64,000 nt of DNA from Candidatus Acidiferrales bacterium (GTDB taxonomy: Bacteria; Chloroflexota; Dormibacteria; Aeolococcales; Aeolococcaceae), in contig DATLRX010000014.1 of NCBI GenBank assembly GCA_035534435.1, positions 5,998 through 69,997 on the forward strand, given 5' to 3'. Within the stretch, counting starts at the first letter, position 1. Every line of letters starts with the position of its first letter. A program made the position numbers and the translations under genes. Under the pieces are notes generated by a model that was not told the DNA's origin, made no database searches, and saw nothing but the letters and a program-made list of their open reading frames with translations. Shown one piece after another: positions 16,872 to 27,321 of this stretch.

Positions 16872-17597
16872 TCAGGTGAGCTCGCCGAGATACTTCGGCA
16901 GCATCTCGCGCCACGTCGACCAGTCGTGGTCGTACTCGGATCCCCACAGATCGACGCGATTGGGAACGCCTTTGCTCCCCAGCACGTGCGCGAGTCGCCA
17001 CGACTCACCCGTGTTCTCCCAGCGGCCCTCGCCGGATGCCAGGATCGCCTGACGGCTGCGCAGCAGTGCCAAATGCTCGCCGTTCAGGCCGGGCAGAAAG
17101 TACGACGGTGTCGCGAAGTACAGGTCGTCGCCCGCGCCCTCTCCGACGAAGCGTGAGATGTCGTACGTCCCGCTCATGCCGAGCGCATTCGTCACCACGT
17201 CCGGGTAGTGACACAGGAGCGCCACCGCGTTGAAGGCGCCGATGGATGCGCCGGCAGTCATCACGGTGATGTCCGGGCTGTCGCAATCCATACGGATCAT
17301 CGGGATCAGCTCGTAGCGGACGAACTCGAGGAATCCGCGCAGCAGCGCAGCGCGATATCGCGGGTCGCCATCACCGCGCAGCATCGCCGCCCCCGATACG
17401 CTGTCGCACGAGTAGAGCTTCACCCGCCCGGCCTCGAGATACGCCCCCACCGAGTCGACGAGCCACATGCGCTCGATCTCCTCGGCGTCACCCCCGGCCG
17501 TCGGGAACACGATGACCGGCCGGCCGAAGTGACCCCAGCGCGCCACGGTGACGTCGGACGCGACTCGTCCCGAATACCAGCGCTCTCGCCGCTTCAT
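16872..17597 (-). CDS. Esterase-family (alpha/beta hydrolase) protein
   Basis: 'GRPVIVFPTAGGD' and nucleophile elbow 'TAGASIGAFNAV' (GxSxG). The start is taken at ATG 17597; the listed ORF runs to 17747 and overlaps the upstream gene. Confidence 0.65.
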   Translation of the reverse strand: MKRRERWYSGRVASDVTVARWGHFGRPVIVFPTAGGDAEEIERMWLVDSVGAYLEAGRVKLYSCDSVSGAAMLRGDGDPRYRAALLRGFLEFVRYELIPMIRMDCDSPDITVMTAGASIGAFNAVALLCHYPDVVTNALGMSGTYDISRFVGEGAGDDLYFATPSYFLPGLNGEHLALLRSRQAILASGEGRWENTGESWRLAHVLGSKGVPNRVDLWGSEYDHDWSTWREMLPKYLGELT

Positions 17598-17643: not shown

Positions 17644-18807
17644 TCAGGGATAGATGAGGCGCGCTTCTCCGGGGAACAGCCAGCCGAGACCGTCCAGGAG
17701 GCGGTCACGCCAGTTGATCCAGTTGTGGCCGTCGAGGGCTTCGACAACCTTCAAGGTCCCGGCCATCTGCTCCAGCACGCCGACCATTGCGCGGTCCGGT
17801 TCGGCGAGCGGCTCGAACACGCCGTAGGTCATGAAGACGCGCTCGGTGACCATCGGTGGGCCCTCGCGGACCTTGTTGACGAACCGGATGACGGGCTCGA
17901 ACACGCGACCATAGCTGTGCTCGCCCGGCTCACCGGTGAAGCGCAGCGACGGTGACTCGAGAAGCAGACCTCCGTAGAAGCCCGGCGCCCGGACGGCGGC
18001 GGCGAGCGACGCGACGCCGCCGAAGCTCGCGCCCATCAGCACGCGGGCGCTCGGGGCGCCGCGCAACTGGAACGTCCCCTCGAGTTGCGGCACCAGCTCG
18101 CTGGTGAGGAAGCGGCTGTGGGCGAGGCTTGCGGCATATTCCCGGAGACGGTCTCCGGGGTGCGTGAAGACCACGAGACAGTCCGCGATGAGGCGGCGGT
18201 GCATGAGGTTGTCGAGCACCGTTCCCATCGACGAATGGTTGAGGAAGTCACCGCCGTCGTGCACGATGAGCAGCGGCAGGCGCCGGTCGCGCCGCCTGCG
18301 CGCCGGGACATACACCGTGACGTGCGCCTCGCGACGCAGCGCCTTGCTCGCGATGCGCAGGTCGGCAAGCTCGCCCGGCACCGCCGCGGGGTCCGGGTAC
18401 GTCCAGTCGGGTCGCGCATAGCCGTCGGCTTCGAGCACGGACTGCGACCCGATGGCGTCGGACACCGCGTTCTGGTTGAGCGGATCGTTCATGCTCTCCG
18501 CGCTGTCGCCGCGGCGGACGAGCATCCGGTACTGAATGCGTGCACCGCGCGGCAGCTCGATGCTCGCGTGCCACAGGTCCGTGCCCTTCATCCGGCGAAG
18601 CGGCAGTGGGATGGGCACCCCCATGATACGGTGCTCGACGCCGACCCAGTCGGCCTCCCCTCGCCAGAGGAACGTGCACGTCGATCCTTCGACGAGCGGG
18701 ACCGAGTGATCGCGCAGCAGCTGGTCGATCGCCTCGGGAGAGGCGCCGTCGTTGCGAAGCCTGGCGAGGGCGTGCTGAGGCTGCGAGGGCGCAGGGCTCA
18801 CGCTCAA
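17644..18807 (-). CDS. Enterochelin-esterase-like protein (N-terminal Ig-like domain + esterase domain)
   Basis: N-terminal 'TFLWRGEADWVGVEHRIMG...LWHASIELPRGARIQYRMLV' resembles the Fes-type N-terminal domain. 'LPLLIVHDGGDFL' and 'LMGASFGGVASL' (GxSxG) mark the esterase domain. The TTG start overlaps the upstream stop (TTGA). Confidence 0.72.
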   Translation of the reverse strand: MSVSPAPSQPQHALARLRNDGASPEAIDQLLRDHSVPLVEGSTCTFLWRGEADWVGVEHRIMGVPIPLPLRRMKGTDLWHASIELPRGARIQYRMLVRRGDSAESMNDPLNQNAVSDAIGSQSVLEADGYARPDWTYPDPAAVPGELADLRIASKALRREAHVTVYVPARRRRDRRLPLLIVHDGGDFLNHSSMGTVLDNLMHRRLIADCLVVFTHPGDRLREYAASLAHSRFLTSELVPQLEGTFQLRGAPSARVLMGASFGGVASLAAAVRAPGFYGGLLLESPSLRFTGEPGEHSYGRVFEPVIRFVNKVREGPPMVTERVFMTYGVFEPLAEPDRAMVGVLEQMAGTLKVVEALDGHNWINWRDRLLDGLGWLFPGEARLIYP

Positions 18808-19733
18808 GCCGCCTCCGTCCCCCGCACGAGGCGGCCGTCGGGAGCGACGACCCCGACAGTGCCGAGGTCAGCGGGCAGGCCGGCGCTCAACTCGAGACGG
18901 TCGCCGGCGTCGAGAACGACACACACGCGCGGAGCGAACCGTGCTGCGAGCAACGCGCGCGCATCGGCGTCGTGTCCGTGCAGCCGCTCCGACACCGGGA
19001 GCGCGACGAGGCCGCGGGCCACGCCGATGCCGATGTCGTAGAGCTCCGCGGGTCGCGCGGCGGGATCGTCGTCGTCGATCACGACAATGTGCTCGGAGAT
19101 CGCCATGCAACCCGATGACCAGACGAGCAGCGGCTGCGCTTCGATGAGCGCCGCGAGGTTGCAGAGATGCAGGCAGTCGTTCAGCACGCCAACATGGCCG
19201 CCGGCAATCGCGATCGCGGCGCACTCCCCCACGATCGACGCGACCTCATCGCGATGCCGGCTGATCATCGACCGATGGTGCGGGGGGTGCGTGGCGTGGA
19301 AACGGTCGTACGCGGCCGCCATCGCCGCAGCGTGCGACTCGTCGATCGTGCGCACCGCCTCGATGGCGGCCGTGAGCTGCTCGCCCGCCCCGCCTGGTGT
19401 ACCGGCGAAGCGCTTGCGCATCACATCGACGCCGTCGAGCGCGGCGCGCACCCTGCGCTGGTACTGCTCGCGCAGGTCGTCGAGCTGCGTCCGCAGCAGA
19501 CGCTCGGCCTCGGCATACTCGGAGTCGCTGCTGAGCACATCGAGCCGACGCCCGTACAGCCCGAGGTTGCGCGAGCCACCGCCGAGACGGCGGTCGATCT
19601 CCGCGTCGTTTCGCTCACCCTCCTCCCATCCGGCGGTGATCAGGGCCACCGGACCGTCGACACCGAAGGCCTCGATCTCCGCCGCAAGGTCGACCTCGTC
19701 GTTGAGTGGACCGAGCAGCGTCACCCGCCTCAC
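18804..19733 (-). CDS. PepE/cyanophycinase-like (peptidase S51 / type-1 glutamine-amidotransferase-like fold) protein with an inserted helical segment
   Basis: 'AIAIAGGHVGVLNDCL' resembles the PepE 'VGGGNTFQLL' motif. 'LLVWSSGCMAISEH' resembles the PepE nucleophile motif 'IGWSAGANLA'. A charged segment of about 110 aa is inserted after the first strand. The GTG start overlaps the ATP-grasp stop (GTGA). Confidence 0.45.
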   Translation of the reverse strand: MRRVTLLGPLNDEVDLAAEIEAFGVDGPVALITAGWEEGERNDAEIDRRLGGGSRNLGLYGRRLDVLSSDSEYAEAERLLRTQLDDLREQYQRRVRAALDGVDVMRKRFAGTPGGAGEQLTAAIEAVRTIDESHAAAMAAAYDRFHATHPPHHRSMISRHRDEVASIVGECAAIAIAGGHVGVLNDCLHLCNLAALIEAQPLLVWSSGCMAISEHIVVIDDDDPAARPAELYDIGIGVARGLVALPVSERLHGHDADARALLAARFAPRVCVVLDAGDRLELSAGLPADLGTVGVVAPDGRLVRGTEAA

Positions 19734-20950
19734 GAGGCGCGCACGTGGACCGTCTCACCGACGACGTTGAGCATGTGGTGCACGGTGTCGAAGTCGGGAT
19801 GGGCCATGCGGATCCAGGCGTTCGCCATGTAGCCGGCCTCGACCGGCTGAGTCGCGGTGCCACTGGGAAGGTGCGTGTCCAGGATCCACTGGCCGAACTG
19901 GCGCTGTATGTCTTCGAGTCCCTCGTAGTGCGTGATCGTCCCGTCGCGATCCGGCCGGAGCGCGACGATTCCCGCGGACAGGCGGCGCGACAGCGGCCGG
20001 TCGACCGCGTGATGGACGATCGTGTTCGCCCACTCGCGGTAGATGTCGATGTCGTTCCCCGCCGCGTAGAGGTCCCAGGCGCGAACACCGGGCGGACGGC
20101 AGCCGATCTCGCTGAAGCGCAAGCCCTTGGGTCCGAAGAACCACTCCATGTGCGTCGCCGACGTGCCGATGCCGAGCGCGTCGATGGCACGCAGCCCGAG
20201 CTCGCGCACCTGCTCGTAGTCGCGGTTGGTGTCGACCTGGTTCGTCGAGACGAACTGCGGGCTGATCCAGCGCTCGCGCATCGCCTCGAGCACGTTCGGG
20301 AAGTAGTGCGAGATGAAGTCGTACGCGGGGTGGCCGTCGATGCTGATGGTGTCGTAGAAGCCTTCGTGGCCCTCGACGAACTCCTCCACCGCCACGTCCT
20401 GCGCGCCGGATGCGCCGAGCGCCGCAAGCGCCCGCTCGAGCTCGGCATCGGAGTCGACCCGGCTCGTCCCGGATGCCCCCGCCGCCGCACGCGGTTTGAG
20501 GATGAGCGGGTACCCGACCTGCGCGGCAAACGCCAGCACCTCTGCGGAGGAGCTCGCTCCGGTGGACTGTGCGGTGGCAATCCCGGCATCGCGCAGCGCG
20601 TCCTTCATCGCAGGCTTGTCGCGGCAGAGATATGCCGTGCGGACCGACGTCCCGGGAATGCCGCACGCCTCGCGCGCGTGGGCCGCCGACATCGTGTGCG
20701 CCTCGATGGTCGACTCGAGCGCGTCGATCCAGACCCTGCTCTGGGCAAAGCGCACGGCCTCCACCAGGGCGTCGACGTCCGTGACGTTGGGGACCTGCTG
20801 GTAGTGGAACATCCAGTCGCGAAGCTCCTGGTCGAGGAAGTCGACCGGGCGCTCGCCGATGCCGATGACGTTGGCTCCCGCGGCAGCGAGTCCGCGCACG
20901 AACTCGCGCTGGTTCGGCGGAAAGGCCGGCTCGACGAAGATGATGTTCAC
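19730..20950 (-). CDS. Stand-alone ATP-grasp ligase, paralogue A
   Basis: 406 aa. 'RDKPAMKDAL', 'GYPLILKPRAAAGASGTSRV', 'THMEWF' and 'EIGCRPPG'. Collinear with the 21016 and 22242 proteins. Confidence 0.8.
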   Translation of the reverse strand: MNIIFVEPAFPPNQREFVRGLAAAGANVIGIGERPVDFLDQELRDWMFHYQQVPNVTDVDALVEAVRFAQSRVWIDALESTIEAHTMSAAHAREACGIPGTSVRTAYLCRDKPAMKDALRDAGIATAQSTGASSSAEVLAFAAQVGYPLILKPRAAAGASGTSRVDSDAELERALAALGASGAQDVAVEEFVEGHEGFYDTISIDGHPAYDFISHYFPNVLEAMRERWISPQFVSTNQVDTNRDYEQVRELGLRAIDALGIGTSATHMEWFFGPKGLRFSEIGCRPPGVRAWDLYAAGNDIDIYREWANTIVHHAVDRPLSRRLSAGIVALRPDRDGTITHYEGLEDIQRQFGQWILDTHLPSGTATQPVEAGYMANAWIRMAHPDFDTVHHMLNVVGETVHVRAS

Positions 20951-21015
20951 GCGGGAGATCCTACCCGCAGCAGGCCACGGTCCTGAGGCCCGGCTGCCTA
21001 CACTCGCGGCGTCAC

Positions 21016-22245
21016 ATGCCGAATGCCGTGTTCGTCGCCCCGTTCCTCCTGCCCGCGACCGTGCGCTTCATCGCGGCCGCAGCGTCGCTCCCCGATGTCC
21101 GGCTCGGGCTGATCAGCCAGGACCCTGAACAGCGTCTCGGCGACGATCTCCGTACCGCGCTTGCCGGCCATTTCCGGGTGAACGACGGCACCGATCCGCA
21201 GCAGATCGCCGATGCGACGCGCGCGCTCTCACGTCATCTCGGGGGCGTCGACCGGCTCATCGGGATGCTCGAACAGCTGCAGGTGCCCCTCGGCGAGGTG
21301 CGCGACGCACTCGCGATCCCCGGCATGGGCGCGGAGGTCGCCAGGAACTTTCGCGACAAGGCACGGATGAAGACCGTCTTCGAAACGCACGGCGTTCCCT
21401 GCGCCCGTCACCGCCTCGTGCACGATGCCGGCGAGGCGCAGGCGGCCGCGGCGGAGCTTGGCTATCCCGTCGTCGCCAAGCCGCCTGCAGGCGCCGGCGC
21501 ACGCTCGACCTTTCGCATCGACGGCGACGAGCACCTCGGTGAGTGGCTCCGGGCCGACCCGCCGAGCGACCACGTCCCGGTCCTCCTCGAGCAGATGGTC
21601 GTCGGCGAAGAGCACAGCTTCGACAGCGTGCTGATCGACGGGGAATGCGTCTGGCATTCAATCTCGCGATACCTGCCGACACCGCTCGAGGTGCTCGAGA
21701 ACCCCTGGATCCAGTGGGCTGTGCTGCTCCCACGCGACATCGCGACGCCGGAGTACGACGTCATCCGCAGTGAGGGCGTGCGCGGGCTTCGCGCGCTGGG
21801 ACTGCGCACGGGACTCACGCACATGGAGTGGTTCCGTCGCGCCGGCGACGACATCGCGATCAGTGAGGTCGCGGCGCGACCGCCGGGTGCCCAGTTCACC
21901 TCGCTGCTGTCGTACGCGCATGACATCGACATGTACGCGGCGTGGGCGCGGCTCGAGATCTCCGGCACCTTCGAGCCGCCCGAGCGGCGCTACTCGGTCG
22001 GGGCGGCATACCTGCGCGGCCAGGGAAGCGGCACAGTGCTCGCTGTGCACGGGCTCGACGTCCTTCAGCGCGAGCTCGGCGACATCGTCGTCGAGGCCGT
22101 GGTCCCGCGCCCGGGGCAGGCCTCAACCGGCACGTACGAGGGCGAAGGGCACGTCGTGCTGCGCCATCCCGACACCGGGGTCGTCGAAGCGGGGTTGCGC
22201 CGAGTCGTCGAGGTTGCACGGGTCGAGCTCGGAGAGATGTCGTGA
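21016..22245 (+). CDS. Stand-alone ATP-grasp ligase, paralogue B
   Basis: 409 aa. 'RDKARMKTVF', 'GYPVVAKPPAGAGARSTFRI', 'THMEWF' and 'EVAARPPG'. Divergent from paralogue A across 65 bp. Confidence 0.8.
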   Translation: MPNAVFVAPFLLPATVRFIAAAASLPDVRLGLISQDPEQRLGDDLRTALAGHFRVNDGTDPQQIADATRALSRHLGGVDRLIGMLEQLQVPLGEVRDALAIPGMGAEVARNFRDKARMKTVFETHGVPCARHRLVHDAGEAQAAAAELGYPVVAKPPAGAGARSTFRIDGDEHLGEWLRADPPSDHVPVLLEQMVVGEEHSFDSVLIDGECVWHSISRYLPTPLEVLENPWIQWAVLLPRDIATPEYDVIRSEGVRGLRALGLRTGLTHMEWFRRAGDDIAISEVAARPPGAQFTSLLSYAHDIDMYAAWARLEISGTFEPPERRYSVGAAYLRGQGSGTVLAVHGLDVLQRELGDIVVEAVVPRPGQASTGTYEGEGHVVLRHPDTGVVEAGLRRVVEVARVELGEMS

Positions 22246-23465
22246 CCGCGACCGTGTTGATGATCTCTCCGGGCTACCCGGCCGAGATGCCCTTCTTCAC
22301 GCGCGGTCTGGCTCGCGCCGGCGCACGCGTCATCGGTGCCGGCGACCAACCCGTCATGGCGTTGCCGGAGATGGCGCGCGACCACCTCATGGACTACTGG
22401 CAGACCCCGTCGTTCGCGCACGAGGACGCGATCGTGCACGAGGTCGCACAGCGCGCGGCGGGGCTCCGCATCGATGTCGTGGCATCGCTGTGGGAGCCGA
22501 CGATGCTGCTCGCGGCGCGCATTCGCGAACGCCTCGGCATTCCGGGGATGACCGTCGAGCAGACCATCCCCTTCCGTGACAAGGAGACGATGAAGCAGGT
22601 GCTCGACGCGGCGGGGATTCGCACGCCACACCACTACCGCTCGGGAACCGCCGCGGGCGTCCGCGAGGCGGTGGAACGCATCGGCTATCCGATCATCGTC
22701 AAGCCGATCGCCGGAGCCGGGTCCGCGAGCACGTTTCGTGTCGATGGCCCCGAGGACCTGGAGCGCGTGCTCCCGCAGCTGCGACATGTCGCGGAGGTCA
22801 GCGTCGAGGAGTTCATCGACGGCTCGGAGTACACGTACGACACCATCTGCTCGGACGGTGAGGTGCTGTTCGACAACGTCTGCTGGTACCGGCCACGTCC
22901 GCTCATCGCGCGTCAGCTGGAGTGGATCAGCCCCGTCACCGTGGTCATGCGCGACATCGATGCGGCGAACCTCGCAAACGGACGCTCGATGGGACGCGAC
23001 GTCCTGCGGGCGCTCGGATTCCACGACGGCTTCACGCACATGGAGTGGTTCCGCACCGCGAGCGGCGAGGTGGTCTTCGGAGAGATCGGGGCGCGCCCGG
23101 CGGGCGCGCGCACCGTCGACACCATGAACTTCGCGAACGACGTGGACCTGTTCCAGCAATGTGCGGAGGCGGTCCTCCACGGGCGCCTGTCCGAGCCGAT
23201 CGAACGCCGGTACAACGCCGCGTCCATCTTCAAACGCGCGCAGGGAGGTGGACGCATCGCGCGCATCGAGGGACTCTCCAACCTGCTCGGCGACTACGGC
23301 GAATGGATCTGCGCGATCGATCTGCTTCCCATCGGCGCGCCGCGGCGCGACTGGCTCATGACCCTGATCTCCGACGGCATGGTGATCGTTCGGCACCCGG
23401 ACCTGGACACCTGCATCGAGATCGCCGACCGGTTCGCGACGGAGCTGCAGATCTACGCGGACTGA
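22242..23465 (+). CDS. Stand-alone ATP-grasp ligase, paralogue C
   Basis: In-frame GTG 22242 overlaps the stop of paralogue B (GTGA). 'RDKETMKQVL', 'GYPIIVKPIAGAGSASTFRV', 'THMEWF' and 'EIGARPAG'. Confidence 0.8.
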   Translation: MTATVLMISPGYPAEMPFFTRGLARAGARVIGAGDQPVMALPEMARDHLMDYWQTPSFAHEDAIVHEVAQRAAGLRIDVVASLWEPTMLLAARIRERLGIPGMTVEQTIPFRDKETMKQVLDAAGIRTPHHYRSGTAAGVREAVERIGYPIIVKPIAGAGSASTFRVDGPEDLERVLPQLRHVAEVSVEEFIDGSEYTYDTICSDGEVLFDNVCWYRPRPLIARQLEWISPVTVVMRDIDAANLANGRSMGRDVLRALGFHDGFTHMEWFRTASGEVVFGEIGARPAGARTVDTMNFANDVDLFQQCAEAVLHGRLSEPIERRYNAASIFKRAQGGGRIARIEGLSNLLGDYGEWICAIDLLPIGAPRRDWLMTLISDGMVIVRHPDLDTCIEIADRFATELQIYAD

Positions 23466-23504
23466 CGGTTGCGCGGATGAGTCGCCGGCCGTGGTGCCTG
23501 CTGT

Positions 23505-23771
23505 CTATCGTCCGGCTTTGGTGCGGTTCGCGCCCGCACCAGCACCATGGCGACGGCGAAGCGCGATCGGTGGCGCCGGACGCGCGTTCGTCGCCTCGGC
23601 GTTCGCGCGGAGCTTCGCGAGCGTCTGGATGAGGTGCTCACGGTCGGCTTCGCTGATGCCATCCGTCGGGTCGATCGAGGTTGCGTGCACCTGGGCAAGC
23701 ATCGGACCGACGAGCGCCCGAGCCTCGCCCGTGATGAGGACGTGCGAGCGAGGTGCAGCAGAACCTCGCCC
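23505..23771 (-). pseudogene. Possible C-terminal remnant of a MarR-family regulator
   Basis: The open frame directly after the hydrolase stop reads '...HVLITGEARALVGPMLAQVHATSIDPTDGISEADREHLIQTLAKLRANAEA'. This looks like the last helices of a MarR protein. No wHTH-encoding part is present. Confidence 0.35.
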
Positions 23772-24824
23772 TCAGCTCGCGGATGCCAGGAACTCGAAGA
23801 ACAGCGTCTTCCAGCGCTCTGCCGCGTCGAACAGCGGACCGTGCCCGGAGCCCTCGAACATCTCGATGCGCACTCGACCACCCGAGTCCCGATAGCGCTC
23901 GAGCACAGCGCGGATCTGCGCCACCATCGGCTGCGGGGCGAAGACCTCGTCTCCCGGCCAGCCCGGGATGACGCCCATCCTGCCGAGGGTGCCCATCTCC
24001 CACGCGGAGTTGTCGGAGACCACGATGTCAGCGGTGCCGTGCGTCCAGAGGACCGGCGGCTTGGGATCGACGTCGACGATGCCGGACCAGTTGCAGTATT
24101 TCCCCGACAGCGCATTGAGGATGCCGCGCGTTCCCGGGGCGATGCCCGGCCAGTTCTCGGAGGTCGTCGTGTCGCCGGGGTACCCGTCATCGCCGGTCTC
24201 CGACTTGAGGATCTCCTCGACGAGCATGTCCTCACGGTCTGCCGGCTCGCGATGCGCCGGCGCCCAGTACGAGCTGTTCATGACATTGCGCGGCGACACC
24301 GGCGAGCCCGACGAGGTGTCGTGCGCCGCGATGTGCTGCGTGAACTCGGCATTGCCCGTGCCTCCCCCCGAACCCGCGTAGTCGGGGAAGCAGGGCGTCC
24401 CGTCGAGCCGCACACCGCCGAAGCCGTACGGCGACACCGGGTCGATGAAGGTGAGGGATGCAACCGGACGGTCCTGCGCGTAGTTCGCGATTGCCGCGCC
24501 GCCGGTCGACCATCCGACGAGATGCACCGGTCGGGTGATCCCGAGCGCGCGGACGAGGGAGAATGTGTCGTCAGCCCAGTCGCGCAACCCGCGCGTGGCA
24601 TCGATCGGGATGCGCTCCGTGTCGCCGAATCCGCGCATGTCCGGTGCGATGCACCGGTAGCGCTCCGGCGCGGCGACCATCACGTGCTCCCAGAAGCGGC
24701 TCGTGGCGAGGTTGCCGTGGATGAGAACGACGGGTATGCCGTCTGACGGTCCCGACTCGATGTAGCGCATGCGCAGACGATCGGTCTGCGCCGTTGCCCC
24801 ACGAACGCCGTCCGGGAGGTTCAT
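23772..24824 (-). CDS. Alpha/beta hydrolase
   Basis: 'VVLIHGNLATSRFW', nucleophile elbow 'HLVGWSTGGAAI' and a C-terminal 'GSGHGP' His region. Confidence 0.8.
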   Translation of the reverse strand: MNLPDGVRGATAQTDRLRMRYIESGPSDGIPVVLIHGNLATSRFWEHVMVAAPERYRCIAPDMRGFGDTERIPIDATRGLRDWADDTFSLVRALGITRPVHLVGWSTGGAAIANYAQDRPVASLTFIDPVSPYGFGGVRLDGTPCFPDYAGSGGGTGNAEFTQHIAAHDTSSGSPVSPRNVMNSSYWAPAHREPADREDMLVEEILKSETGDDGYPGDTTTSENWPGIAPGTRGILNALSGKYCNWSGIVDVDPKPPVLWTHGTADIVVSDNSAWEMGTLGRMGVIPGWPGDEVFAPQPMVAQIRAVLERYRDSGGRVRIEMFEGSGHGPLFDAAERWKTLFFEFLASAS

Positions 24825-24842: not shown

Positions 24843-26036
24843 TCAGTCCGCGGCGGCGACCGCGCGCGTGCCCACCGCCTGCAGCGACTGGGCACGCGGC
24901 GCGGGCCTATCGCTGCGCAGCTCCTCGATGAGGCCGTCGACGACGTCGCGGAGCGACCCACCCGCGTCGACGATCTCGCGCTGGCGGATGTAGCTCGACC
25001 CGCGCTCCATGATGTCCATCGCGCCGCGGAGCTCAGCCGTGCAGCCGAGCCGCGCAGCCACCGGCGTCAGATCCTCGACCAGCTCGCGGATGGCCTGGCG
25101 CAACGGAACGGTGGTGCCGCCTTCGTCGACGATGATCGACGCGTCGAGACCGTGCCGCGCCGCGCGCCACTTGTTCTCGCGTACGAGCCAGGCGCGTGGA
25201 GTCGGCAGCGTGTAGCCGCGGTCGATCATGGTGTCGAACTGGTGCACCAGGCACTGGCTCAACGCGGCGACGACACCGACCTCGCGCAGCGTCGGGATGC
25301 CGTCGCACACGCGGATCTCGACCGTGCCGAAGCTCGGATGCGGACGGATGTCCCACCAGACCTCGCGAATCGTCTTGATGGTGTGCGACGAGATCAGCGT
25401 GTCCATGAGCTGCTCGAACTGCGGCCATCCACTCAGCTGCCACGGCGGGCCGGCCGTCGGCAGGCTCTCGAACACCTTGGAGCGCCACGAGGCCATGCCG
25501 GTGTCATGCCCCATCCAGTACGGGCTCGACGCCGACAGCGCGAGGAAATGCGGGATGTACGCGGAGAGCGCGTTGACCATCGCGATGGCCTTCTCCCCGC
25601 TTCGCACGCCGACGTGGACGTGGATGCCGAAGATCTGCATCTGCTTCGCGGGCCATTGCATGTCGTTGACGAGCCGCTGATAGCGCGGGTCGGGACTGAT
25701 CTCCTGGAGGGCCGGGTCGCTGAATGGATGCGTCCCCGAGCACATGAGGTCGAGGTTGCGCGGCTCGGTGTGCTGTCGCAACTCGGCCATCGTCGCGGCG
25801 AGATCCGCGACCGCGGCGCCGGCGTTCTCGCAGATACCGGTGATGATCTCCACCGTCGACTGAAGGAGCTCCTTCTTGGCCTTCGGATGGCCGGCTTCAC
25901 CGAACGGATCGCCCATCTCCGTGAGGATCTCGTGCGCCCCCTTGACGAGCTCGCGCGAGTCGTGATCGATGAGCTCGAGCTCCATCTCCACGCCGATCGT
26001 GGGGCGAGGGCTGGAGACGAATTCGATCATGGTCAT
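24843..26036 (-). CDS. Carboxylate-amine ligase, GCS2 / YbdK family (gamma-glutamyl-cysteine-ligase-like)
   Basis: Start at ATG 26036 ('MTMIEFVSS'). 'TIGVEMELELID', 'FGIHVHVGV' and 'WWDIRPHPSFGTVEIRVCD'. The listed ORF extension to 26495 overlaps the upstream gene. Confidence 0.88.
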   Translation of the reverse strand: MTMIEFVSSPRPTIGVEMELELIDHDSRELVKGAHEILTEMGDPFGEAGHPKAKKELLQSTVEIITGICENAGAAVADLAATMAELRQHTEPRNLDLMCSGTHPFSDPALQEISPDPRYQRLVNDMQWPAKQMQIFGIHVHVGVRSGEKAIAMVNALSAYIPHFLALSASSPYWMGHDTGMASWRSKVFESLPTAGPPWQLSGWPQFEQLMDTLISSHTIKTIREVWWDIRPHPSFGTVEIRVCDGIPTLREVGVVAALSQCLVHQFDTMIDRGYTLPTPRAWLVRENKWRAARHGLDASIIVDEGGTTVPLRQAIRELVEDLTPVAARLGCTAELRGAMDIMERGSSYIRQREIVDAGGSLRDVVDGLIEELRSDRPAPRAQSLQAVGTRAVAAAD

Positions 26037-26049
26037 GGGGAACTGGACT

Positions 26050-27321
26050 CTACGCCGCAGTCGCGCGCTGATCGTGAGCCCACGCGGCGAGCAGTCCCCG
26101 GAAATGCGCGATGAACTGATCGTGCTCGTGCGCGGGGAAGGTCGTGCGGACGGTCTCGACGATGATCCGGTCGAACTCGGGGCTCTCGACCCAGGCCACC
26201 GACAGCTCATCGATGTGCCCGAGGTGGCGGTCGCAGAACTCGGTGTACCGGTCGACCTCGAGCTGCCGGTCGGCGATGCGCCGGTACCCGGCGAGCTTCT
26301 CCTCGTAGCTGAGGTCGGCGCGATCCGCGATCGCGAAGTATTCCTCGGTGTCGAGGTCGACGGACTGGTGGCGTCCGGTGACGCAGCAGAACACGACCCA
26401 CTTGAGCAGCGTCCGGATCGCCCACGGGAAGTAGTAGTGCAGGCTCGTGAGCGCGAGGTCCGGCGTGGCGTTCGCGTAGTCGATGGGATACACATCGTCG
26501 CCGCGGATCAGCGTCTCGCAGCTGTTGAGCTCCCAGCGGAAGAATGCGTTGACGGTGCGCAGGATGCTCACCACCTCGTTGCCGGCTCGCGGCTCCAGGA
26601 AGTTGTGCTCGACGGAGTAGCGCTCGTGCATCGGACGCTCGGGATGAAAGTTCAGCACCATGACCTCGGCGCCGATGCCGAGACTGCGCGCGAACGCGTC
26701 GTATCCATCCACCGCCGCCTGCAGGTGCATGAGGCGTTGCTCGGACTCGTCGTACGCCCGGTACAGCGTCGCCGAGTCCTCGATGCGCGAGACGCCGACC
26801 CACGCCCCGCCGTCAAACGGCTTCATGTACAACGGCATGCCGACCGCACCGGCAACCGCCTCGAGGTCGAAGTAGCGGAGATAGCGCTGCGCCGTCCCGG
26901 CAAAACGGGGGTTGTCGGGTGGGGTCTTGTTGGGCAGCATCCACGTCTCCGGTACCTTGAGACCGAGCCGGATCATCGCGCAGTACGCGGCGTGCTTCTC
27001 CATGGCCTGGAACGTGAACGGGTTGTTCAGCAGGTGGACGCGATCCATGAGGGTGACCTTCTTGAGCCACTCGCGCGGCATCGGATACCACCACCCGAGC
27101 CGGTCGATCACCAGGGACTGCCGCGGGCGCATGCGCAGGTCGAAGGGCTCGATCGTCATCCGCTCGGTGGTGAACCGGTGCGTCTCCCCGCCCTCGCGCA
27201 CGGTGAGGTCCGCGCGTCCGAGCAGGGCCTCGAACGCGGCAGGCCAGTCCTCCTCGACCCCGAGCAGCATGCCGATGAGATGGGTCGTTGGCATTGTGCA
27301 TGGGAGTATGCGATCCCCCAC
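26050..27321 (-). CDS. ATP-grasp-like ligase (glutathione-synthetase / RimK-like), divergent family
   Basis: 423 aa. 'AAYCAMIRLGLKVPETW', 'MPLYMKPFDGGAWVGVSRI' and 'YPIDYANATPD' fit an ATP-grasp core, followed by a C-terminal helical extension. Start is GTG 27321 or ATG 27294. Confidence 0.5.
   Translation of the reverse strand: MGDRILPCTMPTTHLIGMLLGVEEDWPAAFEALLGRADLTVREGGETHRFTTERMTIEPFDLRMRPRQSLVIDRLGWWYPMPREWLKKVTLMDRVHLLNNPFTFQAMEKHAAYCAMIRLGLKVPETWMLPNKTPPDNPRFAGTAQRYLRYFDLEAVAGAVGMPLYMKPFDGGAWVGVSRIEDSATLYRAYDESEQRLMHLQAAVDGYDAFARSLGIGAEVMVLNFHPERPMHERYSVEHNFLEPRAGNEVVSILRTVNAFFRWELNSCETLIRGDDVYPIDYANATPDLALTSLHYYFPWAIRTLLKWVVFCCVTGRHQSVDLDTEEYFAIADRADLSYEEKLAGYRRIADRQLEVDRYTEFCDRHLGHIDELSVAWVESPEFDRIIVETVRTTFPAHEHDQFIAHFRGLLAAWAHDQRATAA

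Follow-up and report, generated by a model that had tools for sequence, protein, structure and literature searches.

The window analyzed here, a 64,000-nucleotide stretch of contig DATLRX010000014.1 with a GC content of ∼69%, is part of a 2.95-Mb Dormibacteria metagenome-assembled genome and contains three paralogous genes that encode ATP-grasp ligases, denoted A, B, and C. Paralog A lies on the minus strand, and B and C form a pair on the plus strand, on the other side of a short spacer:

19730-20950, minus strand: paralog A, an L-amino-acid-ligase-like ATP-grasp ligase of 406 amino acids (aa), taken from the open reading frame (ORF) call.
20951-21015, unstranded: the 65-bp divergent spacer between the start codons of A and B.
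21016-22245, plus strand: paralog B, an ATP-grasp ligase of 409 aa that opens the B-C pair, taken from the ORF call.
22242-23465, plus strand: paralog C, an ATP-grasp ligase of 407 aa counted from the GTG at 22242, taken from the ORF and its junction with B.

The original prediction, made from the sequence of the window, described three full-length collinear paralogs of 406, 409, and 408 aa, with A and B diverging over the 65 bp at 20951-21015, B and C overlapping through a GTGA at 22242-22245, and A heading a hydrolase operon. This layout is borne out by the sequence, as are the lengths of A and B; only the length of C had to be corrected, to 407 aa. The TGA stop codon of B (22243-22245) overlaps the GTG start codon of C (22242-22244), and GGAGAG, a ribosome-binding-like element, is located 6 nt upstream of the C start. 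On the other strand, A is the first gene of an operon that continues with an S51-like gene and esterase genes, and it overlaps the S51-like gene through another GTGA (19730-19733).

The three proteins align end to end with few gaps in a three-way alignment, at 31 to 36% identity (31% for A and B, 35% for A and C), and are thus full-length collinear paralogs. A search of the whole genome with A retrieved C at an E value of 1.5e-70 and B at 5e-52. The remaining matches were weak, with the best at 7e-11, within a 1503-codon open frame, and the others at 2e-5 or weaker. Judged by these searches, the paralogy is far beyond chance, and the genome holds exactly three copies. Of the five shared motifs listed originally, RDKxxMK, THMEWF, and E(I/V)(G/A)xRPxG are found in A, B, and C alike, but the other two deviate in one copy each, GIPG reading AIPG in B and AGAG reading AAAG in A. 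The divergence had been assigned mainly to the termini. The pairwise agreement of the A, B, and C consensus sequences in 25-column windows was 0.12 to 0.56 over the first 100 columns, 0.36 to 0.60 over columns 101 to 150, and 0.20 to 0.40 from column 351 to the C terminus. The ends are somewhat more diverged, as claimed, but the divergence is less concentrated there than had been stated: by this measure, it is only modestly above that of the core at both ends and is spread along the whole protein. The ends also keep residues that are invariant in all three families, namely, P8, F17, E83, and R93 in one and R332, G337, G344, and G364 in the other. The possibility that the similarity is limited to the ATP-grasp core is rejected, given the shared invariants from P8 to G364 and the alignment with the dipeptide ligase RizA over residues 45 to 403.

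The domain-model scores, together with the conserved ATP- and Mg-binding residues and catalytic Arg, place the trio in the ATP-grasp superfamily. Among the Pfam models, A matches PF02786 (CPSase_L_D2; score of 36.8 against a cutoff of 19.8) and PF02222 (ATP-grasp; 34.4 against 27); C matches PF13535 (ATP-grasp_4; 34.3 against 27), PF02222 (30.8 against 27), and also ATPgrasp_N above its cutoff; and B matches PF02786 marginally, at 20.1 bits against 19.8, although it shares 31 to 35% identity with A and C along its entire length. No curated NCBIfam model was matched at its cutoff by A, B, or C, which gave generic ATP-grasp matches only, and the BacD model NF053745 scored 22 to 40 bits against a cutoff of 850. 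More specific assignments come from the comparison with the PDB, where the top matches are solved L-amino-acid ligases (LALs), with similarity over the full length. The best match of A is RizA (4wd3; E = 3.2e-13), with residues 45 to 403 of A aligned on residues 44 to 403 of RizA, so that the whole multidomain architecture is common to both proteins. Carbamoyl-phosphate synthetase (CPS) nearly equals RizA in score for A, but over the core alone (residues 109 to 319). The best matches of C are 4wd3 (2.4e-17) and the LAL BL00235 (3vot; 1.2e-16), with BacD also among the matches. A, B, and C can therefore be provisionally classified as LAL-type ligases, grouped with the L-amino-acid ligases by sequence.

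To follow the conservation of the trio, a locus scan restricted to one genome per species was used, which yielded 80 loci with A orthologs at 62 to 91% identity; from these related loci, a set of 173 orthologs was drawn (81 of A, 48 of B, and 44 of C). In this set, 36 columns of the alignment carry the same residue in all three families at a conservation of at least 95%; among them are K112, K152, E189, H267, E269, E281, and R285 (A numbering). When A is aligned by HMMER with Escherichia coli CPS, E281 and R285 coincide with the E and R of its "IEMNPR" motif, and E269 coincides with the Q of "VQF." From the structures of CPS and biotin carboxylase, we take the positions of E269, E281, and R285 to be those of the Mg ligands and of the Arg that stabilizes the acyl-phosphate. 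Thus, A, B, and C keep the ATP-, Mg-, and acyl-phosphate-binding residues and, by these residues, would be catalytically competent. The alternative that one or two of the copies are pseudo-enzymes is rejected, the catalytic columns being intact in all three families across the 173 orthologs. Nine further columns are invariant inside each family and differ between families, as expected of three different specificities. The existence of three separately conserved families, each with its own invariant residues, argues for three different reactions and not for redundancy.

The 80 loci come from Dormibacteria, Actinomycetota, Myxococcota, Planctomycetota, Gemmatimonadota, Acidobacteriota, and Krumholzibacteriia, and A orthologs from different phyla are 62 to 68% identical. 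Cultured carriers include Pseudonocardia adelaidensis JCM 18302 and Geodermatophilus sp. CPCC 206100. A phylogeny had been proposed as the means to tell an ancient triplication from a recent one. A maximum-likelihood phylogeny was built from 80 sequences, the outgroup being two distant homologs that occur in single copy. In this tree, each paralog falls into a single clade (SH-aLRT support of 100, 99, and 99 for A, B, and C, respectively), and each clade includes sequences from Dormibacteria, Actinomycetota, Myxococcota, Gemmatimonadota, Planctomycetota, and Acidobacteriota. The deepest nodes of the tree unite long branches, so no weight is placed on the order in which A, B, and C split. The shortest branches are those of A, the slowest-evolving member of the trio. 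With each paralog forming a cross-phylum clade, a recent local triplication is rejected; the triplication is, by this phylogeny, ancient and older than the spread of the cluster across phyla. The distance matrices of the families are strongly correlated (r = 0.87 for A and B, 0.81 for A and C, 0.95 for B and C, and 0.89 for A and the S51-like protein), indicating that the genes travel together. The system is rare and patchy: it was found in 3 of 400 evenly sampled species genomes of Actinomycetota, apart from the seed genome (∼1%), and in 2 of the 121 genomes of the window's own GTDB phylum, one of which is that of the window itself.

The trio is embedded in a block of ligase and hydrolase genes, which in the window comprises the following:

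18804-19733, minus strand: S51L, an S51-like (peptidase-E fold) protein of 309 aa, translationally coupled to A.
17644-18807, minus strand: Est1, esterase 1, 387 aa, with a PF00756 domain and an enterochelin-esterase-type N-terminal domain.
16872-17597, minus strand: Est2, esterase 2, with a PF00756 domain; the likely start is the ATG at 17597, giving 241 aa, and the longest ORF extends to 17747.
23772-24824, minus strand: an alpha/beta hydrolase of 350 aa, on the other arm of the cluster.
24843-26036, minus strand: a GCS2 (YbdK-type) carboxylate-amine ligase of ∼397 aa.
26050-27294, minus strand: X423, a fourth ATP-grasp ligase, of the Ddl/LysX/ArgX/RimK type, with a C-terminal helical domain.

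Mapping of the 80 loci by tblastn reveals a recurrent order, C-B<>A-S51L-Est1-(X423)-Est2, in soil bacteria from at least six phyla, including Dormibacteria. When matches covering at least 80% of each query are counted, S51L is present in 62 of the 80 loci, Est1 in 63, Est2 in 51, B in 47, C in 45, and X423 in 35. Where A is flanked by 6 kb or more on both sides (50 loci), B and C are adjacent in 32. S51L and Est1 are found with A in loci with and without B and C; hence, A and the hydrolases form the core of the block, and B-C is an accessory pair. A 4-bp stop/start overlap is the commonest spacing between A and S51L (35 of 62 loci), between S51L and Est1 (26 of 57), and between B and C (19 of 41 same-strand loci). 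Together with the correlation of r = 0.95, the conserved overlap of B and C suggests that these two form a pair distinct from A.

S51L matches no Pfam model, the S51 model included, and no NCBIfam model, and its profile gave only weak PdxT-type matches in the PDB. With the sequence profile this weak, a fold search was needed. The AlphaFold2 (AF2) model of S51L has a predicted local distance difference test score (pLDDT) of 89.7, and its top seven Foldseek matches are all peptidase E (family S51). The protein contains a helical insert of ∼110 aa (residues 59 to 170), and Ser206, at the nucleophile position, is nearly invariant among orthologs. Est1 matches the Pfam models Esterase (2.7e-19) and Enterochelin_N (8.7e-7); the NCBIfam Fes model stays below its cutoff. 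No evident signal peptide was seen at the N termini of the hydrolases of the block when their sequences were read by eye.

On the other arm, the alpha/beta hydrolase is lineage specific, with an ortholog in 1 of the 80 related loci. The GCS2 ligase matches the Pfam model GCS2 at 3.8e-60 and the NCBIfam model NF010043 at 577 bits against a cutoff of 409, and its gene lies in or beside the cluster also in Pseudonocardia and in one Planctomycetota genome. Fusions of GCS2 to CBS were also encountered: at the Planctomycetota locus L084 (15353-18231), such a fusion is followed by a gene of the AstE/AspA family (succinylglutamate desuccinylase/aspartoacylase-like), and GCS2-CBS fusions of ∼640 aa occur in eight other loci. 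X423 has no Pfam match, and its profile matches Ddl in the PDB at 9e-5. Its AF2 model (pLDDT, 82.7) retrieved Ddl, VanA, LysX, ArgX (TM score, 0.73), and RimK with Foldseek. In Myxococcota, Gemmatimonadota, and Planctomycetota, X423 is part of the A operon; in the window, it is located on the other arm, with the GCS2 ligase and the alpha/beta hydrolase. As judged from the N termini of orthologs, the longest ORFs overstate GCS2, X423, and Est2: the most likely start of GCS2 is the ATG at 26036, which gives 397 aa and not the 550 of the longest ORF, and that of X423 is the ATG at 27294, leaving 13 nt between X423 and GCS2.

The spacer from which the two arms diverge was analyzed for regulatory elements. 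It is 24 to 243 bp long in 42 of 44 loci, and in the other two, glgA, the gene for glycogen synthase, is inserted. In the window, TAGGAT (minus strand, 20958-20963) precedes the GTG of A by 7 nt, and TACACT (plus strand, 20999-21004) precedes the ATG of B by 11 nt. The sequence GGTAGGATC is present 7 to 11 nt upstream of the A start in the window and in 9 of 10 aligned Dormibacteria loci, and L007 has GGTACGATC. A TA[CG]ACT-type hexamer precedes the B start by ∼11 nt in most of the spacers of the window and loci L001 to L010. A strict search of the spacer for sigma-70 promoters and terminators found nothing. The two −10-like hexamers suggest back-to-back promoters with leaderless or very short-leader mRNAs.

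Taken together, these observations lead us to favor, with moderate confidence, a reading in which the trio consists of three functionally distinct LAL-type ligases within a cytoplasmic build-and-break module for an amino-acid-derived compound. Each ligase would phosphorylate the carboxylate group of its substrate, an amino acid or small peptide, and join the resulting acyl-phosphate to an amine, a hydroxyl acceptor being less likely. A would be the core ligase, cotranslated with the peptidase-E-like protein and the Fes-like esterases, which presumably hydrolyze its product. B and C would act as an accessory, coupled pair, responsible for further ligation steps or for related compounds, and the fourth ATP-grasp ligase and the GCS2 ligase would complete the set. 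The product may be a small nonribosomal peptide or a short oligomer, probably with an acidic residue, that is made and turned over intracellularly; an acidic residue, such as an aspartyl, is hinted at by the peptidase-E-like partner. Three ligation steps on one scaffold, which had originally been suggested as successive or alternative, are no more than plausible.

Several observations weigh against this reading or against its stricter form. The adjacent B-C pair is missing in 18 of the 50 well-flanked loci. Ten genomes whose A operon had no adjacent B-C pair were checked in full: 3 of the 10 contain A alone, without B or C; 6 encode B- and C-like proteins elsewhere, in some cases on the contig that also carries A, at a distance of, for example, ∼18 or ∼9 kb; and 1 contains A and a single, weak further homolog (32% identity). 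The existence of genomes with A and without B and C implies that a fixed three-step chain is not obligatory. Furthermore, the candidate catalytic His of S51L is not conserved in the Dormibacteria or Myxococcota copies. The His residues of "FHD" and "LPHAR," present in most orthologs, are replaced in Dormibacteria, and that of "LPHAR" is replaced in Myxococcota as well. S51L may therefore be a noncanonical hydrolase or a binding subunit and not a conventional peptidase. The presence of esterases, rather than more peptidases, hints that some bond in the product may be an ester. Finally, the recurrent linkage of glgA to the cluster is unexplained by a simple small-peptide pathway.

In the most probable of the alternatives, the module makes and mobilizes an intracellular reserve, either a cyanophycin-like polyamide or a mixed ester/amide polymer, produced together with glycogen or bound to it, with A as the chain builder and B and C adding side groups. 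We consider this possible but unlikely. A synthetase gene and hydrolase genes are combined in one operon, as in cphA-cphB, and the hydrolase that adjoins A has the S51 fold, that of the family of cyanophycinase. Some LALs and RimK make oligomers or polymers, which also speaks for a reserve. A GT5 glycogen synthase gene, glgA (Pfam Glyco_transf_5; 7e-71), adjoins the cluster in 13 of the 80 loci, from Myxococcota, Gemmatimonadota, Acidobacteriota, Krumholzibacteriia, Planctomycetota, and one member of Acidimicrobiia, six phyla in all. In one Planctomycetota genome, glgA overlaps the A start and is thus translationally coupled to it, and GlgB is encoded next to C. In a Sandaracinaceae genome, glgA directly follows B, and A is ∼17 kb away. 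Most of the glgA-linked genomes hold a second glgA; in one Gemmatimonadota genome, the linked copy is the only one. Several features argue against the reserve: A, B, and C lack the Mur-ligase M domain; in the Pfam scan of the three proteins, no glucan-binding module was found; glgA is missing from the window, from the Dormibacteria loci, and from most actinobacterial loci; and we know of no ATP-grasp ligase that esterifies a polysaccharide. The identification of any of the three as cyanophycin synthetase is rejected, as the models TIGR02068 and NF010623 scored 30 to 35 bits against cutoffs of at least 850 (850 and 877, respectively), over the ATP-grasp segment only. It is possible but unlikely that the block represents a new branch of storage or stress metabolism, centered on the synthesis and mobilization of a new cytoplasmic amino-acid oligomer or polymer, possibly ester-containing, that is produced together with glycogen or bound to it; such a branch would extend over many phyla of soil bacteria.

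The individual loci in which glgA was recorded beside the cluster are L084 (8370-10004), L026, L038, L047, L051, L055, L061, L067, L069, L071, L074, and L077.

A second alternative concerns the number of reactions. B and C almost always co-occur, show the tightest correlation of distances among the pairs compared, and are usually translationally coupled, all of which would fit a single hetero-oligomeric enzyme with one activity, alongside A as a separate homomer, that is, two reactions instead of three. We find this doubtful, since both proteins keep the complete catalytic set, which usually decays in a silent partner; moreover, B and C are on opposite strands in three Myxococcota loci, and the characterized LAL LdmS is a monomer (PMC9486568).

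It is still less likely, and in our judgment improbable, that the trio forms the center of a gene cluster for a secondary metabolite, an exported bioactive di- or tripeptide, such as bacilysin, rhizocticin, or tabtoxin. The nearest solved relatives, RizA and BacD, are indeed antibiotic-dipeptide ligases, and the rare, patchy distribution described above is typical of accessory clusters. However, no conserved exporter or transporter gene, self-resistance gene, or gene for the tailoring of unusual amino acids was found in the block among the loci mapped. The 62 to 68% identity of A across phyla and the fixed gene order are unusually conservative for a natural-product cluster, and four hydrolases without a signal peptide recognizable by eye fit turnover, not export. 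The conservative block, the cytoplasmic hydrolases, and the lack of export and resistance genes thus make an exported antibiotic dipeptide unlikely. A graspetide, a microviridin-type ribosomally synthesized and posttranslationally modified peptide, is rejected: the genes are packed at 4-bp overlaps or short gaps that leave no room for a conserved precursor gene; the sole gap, of 306 bp (23466-23771), is missing in related Dormibacteria loci, where C abuts GCS2; and A, B, and C match LALs and CPS, not MdnC, although no dedicated short-ORF search was made.

Among the genes linked to C, an M20 peptidase gene follows it in ten actinobacterial loci, in nine of them as a separate gene. In the tenth, L044, from an uncultured Actinomycetes genome, C is fused in frame to an M20/M25/M40 peptidase, for a total of 891 aa; this ligase-peptidase may be genuine or may result from a frameshift in the assembly.

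The preferred reading, three distinct LAL-type ligases in a module for synthesis and turnover, would add to a small set of characterized enzymes. About 14 L-amino-acid ligases had been characterized by 2022, nearly all in antibiotic pathways, and in Staphylococcus aureus, the L-Asp-L-Met ligase gene ldmS is in an operon with the M20D peptidase gene hmrA (PMC9486568). A full-text literature search for the gene combination reported here returned no description of this system, with LdmS as the nearest precedent. A, B, and C thus appear to represent new LAL-type families in a previously undescribed multi-ligase/hydrolase module: three strongly conserved new orthologous groups, within a fixed ligase/hydrolase module of six named groups. 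Identification of the product would provide a new nonribosomal peptide or reserve compound for bacterial core or accessory metabolism, as well as three ligases of new specificity for enzymatic peptide synthesis. With cultured carriers available, the question is directly testable, even though the organism of the window is uncultured.

Compared with the known LALs (RizA, BL00235, BacD/YwfE [3vmm], and LdmS), the members of the trio are likewise multidomain ATP-grasp proteins of ∼400 aa, with full-length similarity to RizA, and they share the ATP-binding Lys and Glu, the Mg-binding acidic residues, and the catalytic Arg (E-x-x-x-R); C also shares ATPgrasp_N. The pairing of ligase and peptidase genes in the block resembles that of hmrA-ldmS. 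The trio differs in that its similarity to the characterized LALs reaches only E values of 1e-13 to 1e-17, in that three paralogs, two more ligases, and three or four hydrolases are encoded together, and in that the block spans at least six phyla, in contrast to a lineage-specific antibiotic cluster. In the cyanophycin system, CphA is coupled with CphB, an S51 enzyme, and the block similarly couples an ATP-grasp ligase gene to an S51-fold gene, combining synthesis and degradation. Unlike CphA, A, B, and C are stand-alone proteins of ∼400 aa, with neither the Mur-ligase-type M domain nor the CphA N domain; and S51L, compared with cyanophycinase, is closer to peptidase E, contains the ∼110-aa helical insert, and lacks a conserved candidate His. 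Pathways with multiple ATP-grasp enzymes, such as those following the Ddl/MurC-F logic or the carrier-protein route of LysX/ArgX, use several ATP-dependent ligases in succession. By structure, the nearest relatives of X423 are Ddl, LysX, and ArgX, but the block differs from the LysX/ArgX and Mur pathways in that genes for a LysW-like carrier, for Mur ligases, and for cell-wall functions are absent from it.

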